Source of the DNA: a virus
Lineage: Duplodnaviria; Caudoviricetes
IMG/VR virus record: IMGVR_UViG_3300037067_011215
Coordinates: 3,554-67,553 of that record
DNA length: 64,000 nt
Strand: one strand, 5' to 3'
Part shown: positions 8,354 through 57,259 of the stretch, piece after piece
How the letters are laid out: the number at the start of each line of letters is the position of its first letter
Numbering within the stretch: position 1 is the first letter of the stretch
Program-made: the position numbers and the translations under genes
Notes under the pieces: model-generated
Told to the model about the DNA's origin: nothing
Seen by the model: only the letters and a program-made list of their open reading frames with translations
The model's database searches: none

Positions 8354-8379
8354 CTAAATCCGGCGTTAGCCGGATTTAG
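8354..8379. repeat. hairpin, 11-bp perfect stem, between stop codon and next RBS
   Basis: CTAAATCCGGC-GTTA-GCCGGATTTAG. Confidence 0.85.
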
Positions 8380-9113
8380 TTTGTTGGCAAATTCCTTCCA
8401 TCTCTTATGTCTAGTTCGAATTTGTGTGTTTCGGTTCTTATGCATACTTCTTCTATCTTGTCTTTTCCTAATTTTTCTTCTGCTGCTTTCAGTGTTATTA
8501 CTATTTTTCCTTCTTTTACTAGCTCATTTGTCACTATTGGATATTTTTCTATGAATGATTCCGGTATGATTTTTCTTTCTGATCTTGTTGATCTTAGAAT
8601 CCTGAAAATTCCATCTTTAGATGCAATTGCATCTTTTTTTCCTTTACTAAAAGTATCTGTTCCCCAAATTTCTTGTGGTATTTCTTCTCCTAATTGTTTT
8701 ACTAACTCTTCTATTTCCTGTTTTAGTACTGTTGCATTTTCCATGCTTGTCAATAGTCCTAATTCTTCTATCTTTTCTCCCAATTCTTTATTTAATTTAT
8801 CTCTTTTTTCTGTCAGTTTCTTCACATTTTCGTCGTTTTGTATTTCTTTTACGTATTCATTCAACAAATCCAATTCTTGTTGTTTTTCTCTTATTTTTTC
8901 CATTTTTGTTTCTAGTTCGGCTGGTAATTCTTTTCCTGGTAGTATCTTAATTTTTTCTTTTGCCATTTCGTGTTTCCCCTTTCCACATTCTTTGCATCTG
9001 TAATGATTCCAGTTTTGTTCTGTTCCGAAAATGTGTTGTTCTGTAGAATTGAATTTTTCCGTAATATTTTCCATTTTAATTCTACAATCTGAACACATCA
9101 TGTTTTTACACAT
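8376..9113 (-). CDS. Zn-ribbon/coiled-coil protein in recombination module
   Basis: CSDC..CKEC, long coiled coil; sits next to Rad52-like gene. Confidence 0.6.
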   Translation of the reverse strand: MCKNMMCSDCRIKMENITEKFNSTEQHIFGTEQNWNHYRCKECGKGKHEMAKEKIKILPGKELPAELETKMEKIREKQQELDLLNEYVKEIQNDENVKKLTEKRDKLNKELGEKIEELGLLTSMENATVLKQEIEELVKQLGEEIPQEIWGTDTFSKGKKDAIASKDGIFRILRSTRSERKIIPESFIEKYPIVTNELVKEGKIVITLKAAEEKLGKDKIEEVCIRTETHKFELDIRDGRNLPTN

Positions 9114-9669
9114 CCAATTTCATATCTACTTCTGCTTCTTCCGGTCCTTTTTCTTCTTTTTCTTCGCTATCCTCATCTGCTACTATGTTTCTTGTTTGCT
9201 GCTGTGCAATTTGTTTTACATCAAATCCATATGCTTCGATTACTAGAAGAATATCGTGATCCGATATTTGTAGATGTCTTATTACTGCATTTTTTAGTGC
9301 TCTTGTTATTGCCAATTGTGCAAAATGTGTTTGTCCTCCTGAATGTGGCATCTCTGTTACTGATGCAAATCCTGTTGTTTTTTCTCCTCCTGGTTTATCT
9401 GTATCTAAGTCATATAGTCCTTTGTCGTAAATTTCCACTTTTGCTTCAACATATACTTTTCCAGATTCCCCTCCTAATGGAATTACTTTTGTTATGTCTG
9501 GTATGAATCCTAGATTTTTCTGTCTCATAACTTCATCTATGAAGTTATCAGATATTGTTAGCTTGTTTTCTCCTTTTTTTGCTTTTGTATTTATGTAGAA
9601 ATGCCATGATTCGAACTTTATTCCTTTTAAATGTTCTGGCAAGTTCTCCATTTTTTCTTTGTTTTCCAT
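9106..9669 (-). CDS. probable Rad52/Sak/ERF-like single-strand annealing protein
   Basis: VYVEAKVEI...TTGFASV...QLAITRALKNAV resembles the Rad52-fold signature; acidic tail. Confidence 0.55.
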   Translation of the reverse strand: MENKEKMENLPEHLKGIKFESWHFYINTKAKKGENKLTISDNFIDEVMRQKNLGFIPDITKVIPLGGESGKVYVEAKVEIYDKGLYDLDTDKPGGEKTTGFASVTEMPHSGGQTHFAQLAITRALKNAVIRHLQISDHDILLVIEAYGFDVKQIAQQQTRNIVADEDSEEKEEKGPEEAEVDMKLDV

Positions 9670-9710
9670 GTTTTTCCTCCGTAAAAAATATATTTATTTT
9701 CTTTTGTTTT

Positions 9711-11156
9711 CTATGTTTTTATTCCAGTCAAACTTTCGTACATTGCTTTTACTGCTGAAGCATCGTATTTTTTTACCATTCCCATTTTTGCAACGTCACT
9801 GAATGCGGTGTTTTTCAAGGCATTAATTTTATCTTCTCTCATTGCATTTGTTGACAACCCCTTTTTCATTCCTGCTACAAACAGCAGTTTTGTTTCTATT
9901 TCTTTCATTAGTGGTGTCATTTCCACTACTGTTGGTTCTTGCGCTGTTAGTTCCATTTCCATGTCGTCGTTTTCATTCGTTGGGGCCTCTTCTGGTTTCT
10001 GTTCTGGTTCCTGTTTCTGTTCTGGCTTTGGCTCTGGTTTTGGCTCTGGTTTTGGCTCTGGTTTTGGCTCTGGCTTTGGTTCTGGCTTTGGTTCTGGCTT
10101 TGTTGTTTTTATTTCTATGTTCTCGATTGGTGCGTCCTCGATTGGTTTTTCTGGTTCTGCTGGTTCTTCTGGTGCTAGTTTCTGTTGCCCCTGTACTACA
10201 GGAGTTGTTACAATTCCTTCTGGTGGTTCGAACATTGCCAGTGCATTCATGTTTAATTGGTATCCATTTTCCTGATCTCCGTTTATTCTTGTCACTGATC
10301 CGATTACCAGAATTTGTCTATCCTCTAGTGCTGATGCGAGTACTGTAGCTTGATCTAATGGATTATCGTATTTTTCTGAAGCATCTCTTGCAATTTCATT
10401 AAAATCCAATACCGAAATTGGCGTTTGTCCAGATCCGTTTCTTGGTGGTGTTACTCTGATCCATGCCATTATTCCATTTTCTGTTCTCGTTCGTAGGCTT
10501 ACTCGTGGTCCTTCTGCTACTAATTTTCCATCTTTTTCTGTTTTTGACCATATATTGTAAGTATTGTCCTTGTTCTGGTATTCCGACATCGGGTTTGCGC
10601 CCGCAATTGTTACGGCCACTGCTACTACTGTTGGTAGTGTTTTTATCAATCTTTTGGTATCTTGCAATGTCAGAATTGCTCCGAGGCCTGTCAATTTTTC
10701 TAGCAATTCTGGTTCTGTCATTGGTTTTCTGTTCATTACGTTTTTAATCCACCACGATTTTCTGTCGTCTTTGTCTTCCATCGCAATTAGAAGTCTTGCT
10801 TGTGAGTTTATTGGTACTCGGATTTTCTTCTCTCCGATATCTACTTCTCCTCGCCATGCCTGTACTTCTTTTCCTGTTTTCCCCTGAATGAATCCGTATG
10901 CTGTTGGCCCTTTTCCCGATTCTCCTATCTCTCTTGCTCCGTATAAGATTCCTACTGCTTCTGTTGCTGATTCATCTTCTTTTGCTTTCTTCAGTCTCTT
11001 TATTGCAAAGCTTACTGCGCTCTGTATTGAGTAGTTTCCAGAATCATTGTAGACAGATTCAATTATTTTTTCTGCTCCTTTTACTTTTGTCAGGTCATTG
11101 TTCTTTGTTTTTACTGCATTTGTAAATTCTTCTAGTTTCATATCTCCAAGTTTCAT
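9711..11156 (-). CDS. probable ssDNA-binding (OB-fold-like) protein with Pro/Glu/Lys linker
   Basis: Beta-rich N-terminal domains, (PEPK)7 linker, position beside annealing protein. Confidence 0.45.
   Translation of the reverse strand: MKLGDMKLEEFTNAVKTKNNDLTKVKGAEKIIESVYNDSGNYSIQSAVSFAIKRLKKAKEDESATEAVGILYGAREIGESGKGPTAYGFIQGKTGKEVQAWRGEVDIGEKKIRVPINSQARLLIAMEDKDDRKSWWIKNVMNRKPMTEPELLEKLTGLGAILTLQDTKRLIKTLPTVVAVAVTIAGANPMSEYQNKDNTYNIWSKTEKDGKLVAEGPRVSLRTRTENGIMAWIRVTPPRNGSGQTPISVLDFNEIARDASEKYDNPLDQATVLASALEDRQILVIGSVTRINGDQENGYQLNMNALAMFEPPEGIVTTPVVQGQQKLAPEEPAEPEKPIEDAPIENIEIKTTKPEPKPEPKPEPKPEPKPEPKPEPKPEQKQEPEQKPEEAPTNENDDMEMELTAQEPTVVEMTPLMKEIETKLLFVAGMKKGLSTNAMREDKINALKNTAFSDVAKMGMVKKYDASAVKAMYESLTGIKT
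10021..10104. repeat. 12-bp tandem repeat x7 (codes PEPK)
   Basis: TCTGGYTTTGGY units read directly. Confidence 0.95.
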
Positions 11157-11161
11157 TTTAC

Positions 11162-11473
11162 TTAAACCTCCTTGTTTTCATTTTCTTCATCATATTCTAT
11201 TTCTATCTCCGGCCCATTCAGATCTGTTCTTATTCCTCTAAAATCTTTTGGTGATGTTGTTAATGTCACTCCATTATCTTCTGCGGTTCTCTTTGTTGCT
11301 TGCCCAATTGTTTCCATTTGTGATTTAGGTACGAATATATATCTTATTGATTTCCCTTTCTTCATTAGTTCCAGTACATCCATTGTTGATGGTCTGTATG
11401 ACAATGCTACTGCTACTGTTTTTTGTCTCACTGCGTCCATATTTCTATCTGGTCTTATTAATATTGCTTTCAA
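11162..11473 (-). CDS. DUF1699-like protein (methanogen family)
   Basis: VALSYRPSTMDV and GIRTDLN resemble AFRPSNKD and GHRKDIN of DUF1699, recalled from memory. Confidence 0.6.
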   Translation of the reverse strand: MKAILIRPDRNMDAVRQKTVAVALSYRPSTMDVLELMKKGKSIRYIFVPKSQMETIGQATKRTAEDNGVTLTTSPKDFRGIRTDLNGPEIEIEYDEENENKEV

Positions 11474-56610: not shown

Positions 56611-56633
56611 TTATTTCACCTTTTTTTCTCCAC

Positions 56634-56912
56634 TCATACTTTATCAACTGTAATCAATACTTTGTCTCCCATCTTTGCATTCTCGAATTCCTTCAATACT
56701 TCCTTATCCATTGTATTTATTACCAATCTCGTCCAGGGGTCGCTTGTTCCTTGCTTAATATTCTCATCTTTGTCGTATCCTATTTTCTTTATGGCGAATG
56801 TTGCTGTGTACCATGTTTCCTTATCGTCTTCCTTCAATCCTGTTGATTTGTTCTTTTTCGTAATGCATTTTGTGTGTTCCTCAATTTTATCAAATTTTGC
56901 TTCCAGTTCCAT
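56634..56912 (-). CDS. small beta-rich hypothetical protein
   Basis: Operonic. Confidence 0.55.
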   Translation of the reverse strand: MELEAKFDKIEEHTKCITKKNKSTGLKEDDKETWYTATFAIKKIGYDKDENIKQGTSDPWTRLVINTMDKEVLKEFENAKMGDKVLITVDKV

Positions 56913-56916
56913 AATT

Positions 56917-57219
56917 CTATCTCTCCCTGTTTTTCTTTTTTATCCTTAATTTACTCAATTTTCCTTGTTTTGGACAATTATCTAAGCTGTATATCGGTGG
57001 TTCCTTGAAAATCTTACTAAAATCCACATGTTCCTGCCGCTTTACTTCACAATTCAGGCCGCATCTATAGCATTTATCTCCATGCCTTATGCCTTGAGCT
57101 TTCAGTAGAGTATTAGACAAAGCTTCTCTTCTTTTCTTTAGCGAAGTTGCTTTTTCTATTCTTTTCCTATTTGGCTCAATAATCATATCCTGAACTGTGC
57201 TTTTTGATTCAGGATTCAT
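56917..57219 (-). CDS. small protein with Cys motif
   Basis: KCYRCGLNC...C; start MNPES after GAGG. Confidence 0.5.
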   Translation of the reverse strand: MNPESKSTVQDMIIEPNRKRIEKATSLKKRREALSNTLLKAQGIRHGDKCYRCGLNCEVKRQEHVDFSKIFKEPPIYSLDNCPKQGKLSKLRIKKKNRER

Positions 57220-57233
57220 AAAAAACCTCATTT

Positions 57234-57259
57234 CGCGAGGCGAATAGATTCGCCTCGCG
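57234..57259. repeat. hairpin, 11-bp perfect stem, directly upstream of RBS
   Basis: CGCGAGGCGAA-TAGA-TTCGCCTCGCG. Confidence 0.9.

Follow-up and report, generated by a model that had tools for sequence, protein, structure and literature searches.

The DNA stretch analysed here (the window, 64,000 nucleotides) comprises bases 3554-67553 of a single 67,553-bp virus record, and many of its gene junctions carry short, GC-rich, perfectly paired hairpins (stems), which are the subject of this work. The window genome (G000) has a G+C content of 37%, and ORF-free DNA (ORF, open reading frame) makes up 9.7% of it. Most genes are encoded by the minus strand, and this coding strand has a strong excess of purines. 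The encoded proteins include a family B DNA polymerase (PolB; 1409-3958, minus strand), a PrimPol-helicase, a second protein, which is of the NrS-1 polymerase type, and a helicase with an intein and a LAGLIDADG gene. C2H2 zinc fingers and the DUF1699 and HTH_45 domains were found among the window proteins by Pfam matching. Single-protein and alignment queries of IMG/VR returned just two relatives. The contigs G001 (69,399 bp) and G002 (69,061 bp, with terminal repeats) were both found via a 1713-aa protein; they are collinear with the window genome, encode proteins about 40-80% identical to its proteins, and share 86% DNA identity with each other. A scan of metagenomes added a 5.6-kb contig (L002), whose 371-aa protein is 85% identical.

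To quantify the stems, we scanned for perfect stems with Watson-Crick pairs only and loops of 3-9 nt, and compared the counts to 100 dinucleotide-preserving shuffles within 2-kb blocks. The window genome contains 34, 23, 20, 14, 8 and 4 perfect stems of at least 8, 9, 10, 11, 12 and 13 bp, while the means for the shuffles were 6.5, 1.5, 0.31, 0.08, 0.01 and 0. A preliminary description of this DNA had proposed such a comparison to shuffled controls, and the excess at 10 bp and more (20 versus 0.31) is clear. In G001 and G002 the perfect stems of this length number 44 and 46, respectively. An energy scan of the coding strand led to a similar picture, with 40 hairpins at or below −15 kcal/mol versus 4.9 in the shuffles. 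Thirteen of the 14 sites listed earlier fold with z scores of −3 to −7.7; the site at 28246 is the exception (z −1.65). The stems are 9-16 bp long with sharp ends, and the neighbourhood of each shows essentially no other strong fold. These data demonstrate that the stems are real, non-random elements.

Seven primary sites, all described before and all found again as perfect, GC-rich stems, have 11-13 bp and loops of 4-5 nt, and as RNA of the coding (minus) strand they reach −18 to −28 kcal/mol with z scores of −4 to −7.7. At 8354-8379 the stop codon TAA lies in the 5′ arm of an 11-bp stem with a 4-nt loop, and a GGAG sequence abuts the 3′ arm (−18.5 kcal/mol, z −6.4). The 11-bp stem at 12955-12981 has the stop codon TGA in its loop, and its 5′ arm is formed by the last four codons (K-I-V-A) of the 371-aa gene. 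At 17890-17917 a 12-bp stem with an AACA loop (z −7.1) is directly followed by AGGAGG, with the stop either at the stem or 13 nt before it. The 13-bp stem at 20416-20445 is a full palindrome with the stop within the 5′ arm (−28 kcal/mol), and the 12-bp stem at 22343-22370, again with an AACA loop, has the stop codon TAG at its 5′ edge (z −7.7). The 11-bp stem at 57234-57259 is located 15 nt after a stop and 14 nt before a start. The upstream stop had been described as lying at or in the stem; this does not hold for 14101-14130, where the 13-bp perfect stem lies within the last 44 nt of a 176-aa ORF that reads through it and stops 14 nt downstream, the Shine-Dalgarno sequence (SD) GGAGG overlapping the end of this ORF.

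Three sites had been described as slightly further off from the junctions. Two of these are perfect stems: 15001-15023 (10 bp, 29 nt before the stop of a 192-aa ORF and 26 nt before the next start) and 51004-51031 (12 bp, 1 nt after the stop of a 139-aa gene and followed by a T6 run, which is rare). The third, at 28246-28273 between a 222-aa gene and the PrimPol gene, has one C-A mismatch, is weak, and taken alone is not beyond chance. All three are on the minus strand. The intragenic sites at 16910, 19231 (here 19234), 21024 and 51801 were recovered with z scores of −3 to −4.2. The scan also revealed sites that had not been listed, including 61617-61646, 21200-21227, 34459-34482, 15488-15511 and 61998-62020.

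The position relative to genes was determined for the 110 perfect stems of at least 10 bp in the three genomes G000, G001 and G002. Co-directional intergenic spacers contain 39 of them, convergent junctions 8 and divergent junctions 2; 9 are located in the last 30 nt of an ORF, 12 in the first 60 nt, 36 deep inside ORFs and 4 at contig ends. In the window genome 11 of 19 GC-rich stems lie largely outside ORFs (p = 4e-6), and across the three genomes 48-58% of the GC-rich stems are found in non-coding DNA, which makes up roughly 10% of the total (p values of 4e-6 to 1e-10). Nearly all junction stems begin within about 15 nt of a stop codon; the stop often falls within the 5′ arm, in one case in the loop, and in some cases it directly follows the 3′ arm. 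The same adjacency is seen where the next gene is convergent or starts at a distance of more than 100 nt. In about 75% of the junction cases the next SD follows 0-3 nt 3′ of the stem and the start codon 10-19 nt 3′ of it. A stem is present at 46% of the co-directional junctions with a gap of more than 25 nt, at 42% (10/24) of the convergent, at 9% (2/22) of the divergent and at 3% of the overlapping junctions. Convergent and divergent junctions differ with p = 0.018 (Fisher test), a value that is optimistic, as orthologous junctions of three genomes are not independent. The earlier term "genome-wide" is overstated in view of the values for co-directional and overlapping junctions. Some modules contain clusters of stems; the density is highest in the variable region with small genes, and about 25 kb that comprise the large structural genes and the PrimPol gene are nearly free of stems.

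The bias for convergent over divergent junctions is not predicted by a purely DNA-level role. Together with the adjacency to stop codons and the persistence of stems with the upstream gene (see below), it ties the stems to the ends of transcribed genes.

The order of stop, hairpin and SD could also point to an effect on translation, and translational insulators were among the suggestions of the preliminary description. The hairpin could stop ribosome sliding and act as an insulator, or the next SD could need an upstream ribosome that melts the stem. The arrangement in three quarters of the junction cases and the scarcity of stems at overlapping genes are in agreement with this. Among the six positions outside each stem, however, 197 pairs were observed and 192.5 are expected, and sense-strand G-U pairs are as frequent there as A-C. 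The flanks thus pair as expected by chance and do not sequester the SD, and masking of the SD by an extended lower stem was rejected. In addition, some stems lie between convergent genes, 5′ of promoters or far away from any start, and the tight spacing is explained by the compaction of the genome. A translational insulator or coupling element is thus poorly supported, and we consider it very unlikely.

Termination of transcription in the ordinary way, either by bacterial intrinsic terminators or by the archaeal oligo-U type, would be suggested by the GC-rich stem-loops; 27 of 30 junction stems combine a C-rich 5′ arm with a G-rich 3′ arm. Classical terminators have the same distribution over the two arms. 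This composition looks the same on both strands and does not distinguish RNA from DNA, and it was therefore dropped as a strand test. The U-tract that belongs to a bacterial terminator, and the oligo-U at the 3′ end that belongs to an archaeal one, do not follow the junction stems. On the sense strand at least 5 T within 8 nt occur after 2 of 45 junction stems in the three genomes, which equals the 5% background at random positions; the earlier statement that most hairpins lack a U-tract was therefore correct. On the antisense strand such T-runs follow 8 of 45 junction stems (18%) and are below the background of 25%, so that hidden terminators in this orientation were rejected. A consensus scan of the coding strand from 7000 to 25000 gave no terminator-like site; all terminator-like matches were on the T-rich antisense strand. 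Sigma-70-like sites were not enriched (52 found versus 62.7 expected).

A few stems do have T-runs, namely 51004, 53837-53884 and some convergent sites, and a few operon-end stems have A/T shoulders. The hairpin at the convergent junction 53837-53884 is flanked by A10/T10 shoulders and contains one G-U pair, on the plus strand only; this is the sense strand of the operon for the capsid-like protein (see below), where T10 follows the stem. Judged from its sequence, this site looks like a bidirectional terminator. Another convergent junction, at 61617-61646, has a 13-bp perfect stem. Most stems are located inside operons directly before the next SD, and archaeal termination uses U-tracts and aCPSF1 and does not require a hairpin (PMC7515710, PMC8716108). 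Since T-runs are absent after the stems, these are not canonical terminators, and we see hardly any chance for this explanation.

Conservation of the stems was analysed by comparison of G001 and G002, using our tally of the stem lists of both genomes. A perfect counterpart is present for 20 of 21 alignable junction-type stems and for 9 of 18 intragenic stems. Of 28 matched pairs 17 are unchanged despite a site divergence of about 14%. Six isolated pair changes were found (five transitions and one flip from G-C to C-G), and all six are compensated; the preliminary description had named covariation in related genomes as a check. Loops and flanks vary freely between the two genomes, and the stems are more conserved.

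The same junction can carry non-homologous stems in different genomes; two such junctions follow the 371-aa gene and the 139-aa gene, and another precedes the helicase. For the 371-aa gene of the window the 3′ arm is the inverted copy of the K-I-V-A codons, while in L002 and G002 the gene has the same terminal residues, and an unrelated GC palindrome follows the stop. After the 139-aa gene a stem is present in all three genomes though the downstream gene differs, and its sequence is different in G001 and G002. Unrelated stems also occupy the junction of 8354-8379 in G001 and that of 17890-17917 in G002, the 57234-57259 junction has different stems in G001 and G002, and at the place of 14101-14130 a different 13-bp stem is found in L002 and G001. 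Such non-homologous stems at one junction indicate selection for a hairpin there and not the inheritance of one element.

Compensation is also seen inside genes. In two cases, a stem within signal-peptide or membrane codons persists between genomes with proteins of just 46-64% identity. The 11-bp stem at 19234-19259, which encodes the signal-peptide core ALALASASA, is kept in G001 by two mutually compensating synonymous changes, and the 11-bp stem at 51801-51826, in the transmembrane codons of a 135-aa gene, is still perfect in the orthologues, where two of its pairs have changed with compensation. These data show selection for pairing at given places rather than the inheritance of one repeat. 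Other intragenic stems of the window, also on the minus strand, are located at 16910-16941 (13 bp, 52 nt into a 59-aa ORF), 21200-21227 (12 bp, 30 nt into a 192-aa ORF) and 34459-34482 (10 bp, 28 nt into a 911-aa ORF).

The origin of one arm from coding sequence also fits a selfish or mutational by-product without function of its own, in which template switching within a strand during replication perfects chance quasi-palindromes by copying one arm onto the other, and perfect hairpins would build up at any tolerated place. The 3′ arm at 12955-12981 is an exact inverted copy of conserved last codons, the stop codon itself is often part of the pairing, near-perfect stems are far fewer than perfect ones, and some relatives lack stems altogether. 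The PolB stems represent in-place substitutions at variable residues; they align without indels to a stem-less orthologue, and insertion was therefore rejected for them. Against a by-product stand the GC-rich stems within AT-rich spacers, the better retention at junctions than within genes, the higher conservation of stems than of their loops and flanks, the independent stems at the same junction, and the higher frequency at convergent than at divergent junctions. We regard this origin as quite unlikely.

More distant viruses were reached by a profile-free search with the capsid-like protein. L019 (ENA contig k141_2090017; G+C 45%) and L020 have 35% capsid identity and contain 32 stems in 14.7 kb (0.3 expected) and 15 stems in 11.8 kb (0.2 expected), respectively, with the same layout of stop, hairpin and SD as in the window genome. 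In L019, junction stems of nearly identical sequence also form a family whose loop occurs in either orientation. No perfect stem of at least 9 bp was found in the 32 kb of L017 (Logan SRR12489246 contig) and L021 (ENA scaffold_209), which have 31-34% capsid identity and represent natural stem-free controls.

The stems share several sequence features. Their cores favour CGCG/GCGC, and about 30% of all CGCG are found in the 1-2% of the DNA that the stems occupy, while GGCC/CCGG is not enriched. The loops mostly have 4 nt, and AACA, AGCG and CGCA recur. The preferences for core, arm and loop are not explained by stability alone. At a threshold of 8 shared nt related stems form small families of 3-10 members, and 37 of the 110 stems are singletons. 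The stems had been described as of unrelated sequence; many indeed differ, but the common cores, the C-rich 5′ arms and the recurrence of identical stems of at least 9 nt limit this statement.

This recurrence raises the possibility that the stems are DNA-level recombination elements, which act as hairpins or cruciforms or as shared homologies for the exchange of gene cassettes, any effect on RNA being secondary. Identical stems (at least 9 nt) with unrelated flanks were found for 34 pairs of loci, and ten pairs of identical stems share just one homologous flank. The loop can be present in either orientation on the same stem (e.g., AGCG/CGCT and AACA/TGTT), and the perfect Watson-Crick pairing without G-U bias and the high density in the variable small-gene region point in the same direction. 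In the comparison of G001 and G002, homology breakpoints are more frequent at junctions with a stem (odds ratio 3.4, p = 0.01). Precedents exist in phages (PMC2839356, PMC4122927) and in the motif of HGTV-1 (PMC3950731). However, the association with breakpoints is absent or not significant in three other genome comparisons and is confounded with the accessory region, the stems are far better conserved than neutral sequence, 10-15 bp are short for homologous exchange, and neither the adjacency to stops nor the bias for convergent junctions is predicted. Recombination marks had been proposed earlier; the ten pairs with one shared flank and the odds ratio argue for them, but the latter stems from a single genome pair, and the proposal is not thereby demonstrated. 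As primary function we consider recombination possible but unlikely.

A cassette replacement is seen between two conserved genes, where seven or eight small ORFs of the window (14631-17054) correspond to about 1.5 kb with unrelated genes in L002 (1083-2653). The cassette in L002 has a hairpin at just one boundary.

Priming on single-stranded DNA had been suggested as well, with the stems serving the two archaeo-eukaryotic primases (AEP) in the way of the single-strand initiation (ssi) hairpins used by RepB′. The virus does encode the PrimPol-helicase and the NrS-1 polymerase-type protein, the pairing is perfect, and base composition is skewed between the strands. The clustering of the stems in modules, which leaves about 25 kb including the PrimPol gene nearly free of them, argues against such a function, as do the biases for stops and convergent junctions, which it does not explain, the lack of any common sequence feature beyond the GC-rich cores, and the relatives with the same capsid that have no stems. 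Known ssi hairpins (RepB′, G4) are strand-specific, conserved in sequence, few per replicon and positioned for strand initiation, while dozens of symmetric, varied and clustered stems are present here. A role in priming is highly improbable.

Since the stems adjoin stop codons, are more frequent at convergent than at divergent junctions and stay with their upstream gene, we favour a role in the transcript. We propose, with a little less than even confidence, that the stems function as hairpins at the ends of cistrons and form barriers to decay or processing of the mRNA. The purine-loaded coding strand would give rise to long polycistronic mRNAs with little other structure, in which a GC-rich hairpin of 10-15 bp at or just after the stop would be a very stable block. 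This block may halt decay in the 3′-to-5′ direction, set a processing or pause point, or both, and each upstream cistron would survive as a complete, stable mRNA segment. At an operon end (a convergent junction or a position immediately 5′ of a TATA box) such a hairpin, in some cases with A/T shoulders, would set the 3′ end of the transcript. The close spacing to the next SD would reflect only the lack of spare spacer DNA in this genome. A likely side effect is that stems of nearly identical sequence at different junctions provide short homologies for the exchange of gene cassettes. That RNA rather than DNA is the active form, and what the hairpin blocks, is what we infer. Among the functions suggested in the preliminary description, mRNA processing or 5′ stabilisation fits best to the stop adjacency, the junction bias and the linkage to the upstream gene, although it is not thereby demonstrated.

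Several observations weigh against a cistron-end function. The stems are almost purely Watson-Crick paired (110 perfect versus 25 with one mismatch), and among the mismatches sense-strand G-U (3) is no more common than A-C (5-6), while RNA stems under selection normally tolerate G-U. The 36 stems deep in ORFs, the 12 that lie 20-60 nt after a start, and the six stems of 9-14 bp in the radical-SAM gene of L019 (5657-6544) are not at gene ends, and a 3′ end formed at one of the nine stems inside an ORF end would lose the stop codon. Identical stems recur at loci with unrelated flanks and, in one genome pair, stems coincide with homology breakpoints. RNase III or another obvious hairpin nuclease is not among the 25 listed of 50 Pfam families matched by 78 proteins; the large proteins were covered by a scan of their own. 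The stems are lineage-specific, recurring in two distant lineages, and are dispensable for the virus group, since relatives with 31-34% capsid identity have none. DNA-level and mutational explanations keep some weight, since the pairing is purely Watson-Crick, copies exist within genes, and one arm is a copy of coding sequence.

Hairpins at cistron ends are already known as a kind of element. In Mimiviridae, palindromes after genes define the 3′ ends of transcripts without a conserved motif (PMC4402537). As in Mimivirus, the genome studied here is AT-rich and has palindromes of unrelated sequence just downstream of genes. In Mimivirus, however, hairpins follow the great majority of genes, while here a stem is found at about 20-45% of the non-overlapping junctions. 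A viral RNase III cleaves the Mimivirus hairpins, and the resulting ends receive poly(A) tails, whereas the 25 listed of the 50 Pfam families matched here include no RNase III. The stems described here are also short and GC-rich, a third of them are intragenic, and they belong to SD-led polycistronic mRNAs in a probable archaeal host. An RNase III site of the T7 type has a duplex of about 20 bp or more, often with an internal loop, unlike the sharply ended stems of 9-16 bp.

The puf intercistronic stem-loop of Rhodobacter, repetitive extragenic palindromic (REP) elements in operons and the 3′ inverted repeats of plastids block exonucleolytic decay and lead to segmental stability without termination. 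Analogous intercistronic stem-loops exist in phage T4 (reviewed in PMC3014915). With all of these the stems share a stable stem-loop between cistrons or at 3′ ends. The known stems are usually imperfect, G-U tolerant and few per operon (REP being one sequence family), while those described here are perfect, numerous, mostly unique and also present within ORFs.

The PeSLs of T4-type phages, promoter-stem-loop cassettes, were proposed to function in gene-cassette exchange (PMC2839356, PMC4122927), and the haloarchaeal virus HGTV-1 has a motif of a TATA box plus inverted repeat (PMC3950731). There too, stem-loops flank small accessory genes in variable regions, and similar copies recur. The known stem-loops lie at the boundaries of insertions, deletions or replacements, as some of the stems here may do. 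Those motifs are conserved composites with a promoter. The promoter half is lacking here, since the SD and the start codon at 10-19 nt after the stem leave no room for it; moreover, most stems differ in sequence and the association with breakpoints is modest. The Rickettsia palindromic elements (RPE), the GC clusters of yeast mitochondria and REP elements or bacterial interspersed mosaic elements (BIME) are likewise GC-rich hairpins in AT-rich DNA, located between or within genes and grouped in families. Such elements, like miniature inverted-repeat transposable elements (MITE), are insertions with a family consensus, while here most stems are unique, the PolB stems arose without indels, and the 5′ arm at 12955-12981 is native coding sequence.

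No match was found in the literature for perfect stems of largely unrelated sequence and without U-tract that are conserved in position, dense in two lineages of probable archaeal double jelly-roll viruses and absent in relatives, nor for a hairpin-based, sequence-independent gene punctuation in an archaeal virus. The 3′-end formation and mRNA decay of archaea are understood mainly via U-tracts and aCPSF1/FttA. If the stems act on RNA, they would indicate that archaeal mRNA metabolism has a step that reads structure (a barrier to an exonuclease, an endonuclease or a pause), and they would be compact natural insulator parts. If they act on DNA, they would add a second example, here without a promoter, to the stem-loops by which modular gene exchange is driven. 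A more far-reaching and speculative idea, which we think rather unlikely to be correct, is a virus-specific rule in which perfect, sequence-independent GC hairpins instead of the U-tract/aCPSF1 system of the host set transcript ends or cuts, are read by an unrecognised structure-specific factor of the virus or the host, and double as crossover points for cassettes. With two independent stem-bearing lineages and close capsid relatives without stems the system is testable.

The host had been assumed to be an archaeon, and this is probably correct, because PolB ends with QKTLEDW(K), TATA boxes are found with leaderless starts, and DUF1699 and HTH_45 domains are encoded. The sequence QKTLEDW resembles archaeal PCNA-binding motifs and is similar to the PCNA-interacting protein (PIP) motif. 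In G001 and G002 the PolB codons directly upstream of this end contain a 15-bp stem. Some genes have a TATA-like box about 25 nt 5′ of the start codon and no SD. Such boxes about 25 nt before SD-less starts lie at 41714-41790 and 61957-61990 and are kept in G001; their arrangement suggests archaeal-type promoters for leaderless mRNAs directly after a gene-end hairpin. At the former site an 8-bp GC stem (approximately 41752-41771, minus strand) is located at the end of a small ORF (41783-42004), followed by the TATA-like box and a leaderless-type start at 41714.

The capsid-like protein (405 aa; 52189-53403, plus strand) has no Pfam match, and the Atlas clusters nearest to it are viral. Weak matches by feature and, with a low-confidence model, by structure (template modelling (TM) score 0.5-0.6) include double jelly-roll capsid proteins of the PRD1 P3 type and of nucleocytoplasmic large DNA viruses (NCLDV). 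Clusters and structure matches weakly suggest that it is a double jelly-roll capsid protein.

No provirus of this group was found in GTDB genomes. The commonest stem family is repeated in 0 of the 185,579 species genomes searched; elsewhere it gave only single, scattered chance matches in unrelated bacteria, and a host repeat as source of the stem was rejected. A megablast search against phage records gave no match, an Rfam scan of the window matched 0 families, no tRNA genes were found in the window, and a literature search on this group of viruses gave nothing specific.

Five strong folds (−23 to −30 kcal/mol) are present on the sense strand only in a 268-aa ORF at 19591-20397. A pentapeptide-repeat protein is among the window proteins (Pfam E = 2e-50), and this ORF is probably its gene. 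The five sense-only folds, within 19681-20052, were rejected as members of the system, as they most likely represent fold-backs of the repeats of the pentapeptide-repeat gene. In the intergenic gap 21787-21864 a 48-nt scan detected a fold of −28.3 kcal/mol at 21793-21840 on the coding strand only.

Between divergent genes a perfect palindrome of 10-14 bp with a 3-nt spacer is located at 61998-62020 (G001 21832-21862, G002 17561-17591). It has outward-facing TATA-like boxes on both sides. All three genomes retain it, and its changes, among them a flip from G-C to C-G, are compensated. By its sequence context it looks like an operator in a divergent promoter region and not like a gene-end hairpin, and the long plus-strand ORF nearby probably starts with the ATG near 62055 and not with the TTG at 61977.

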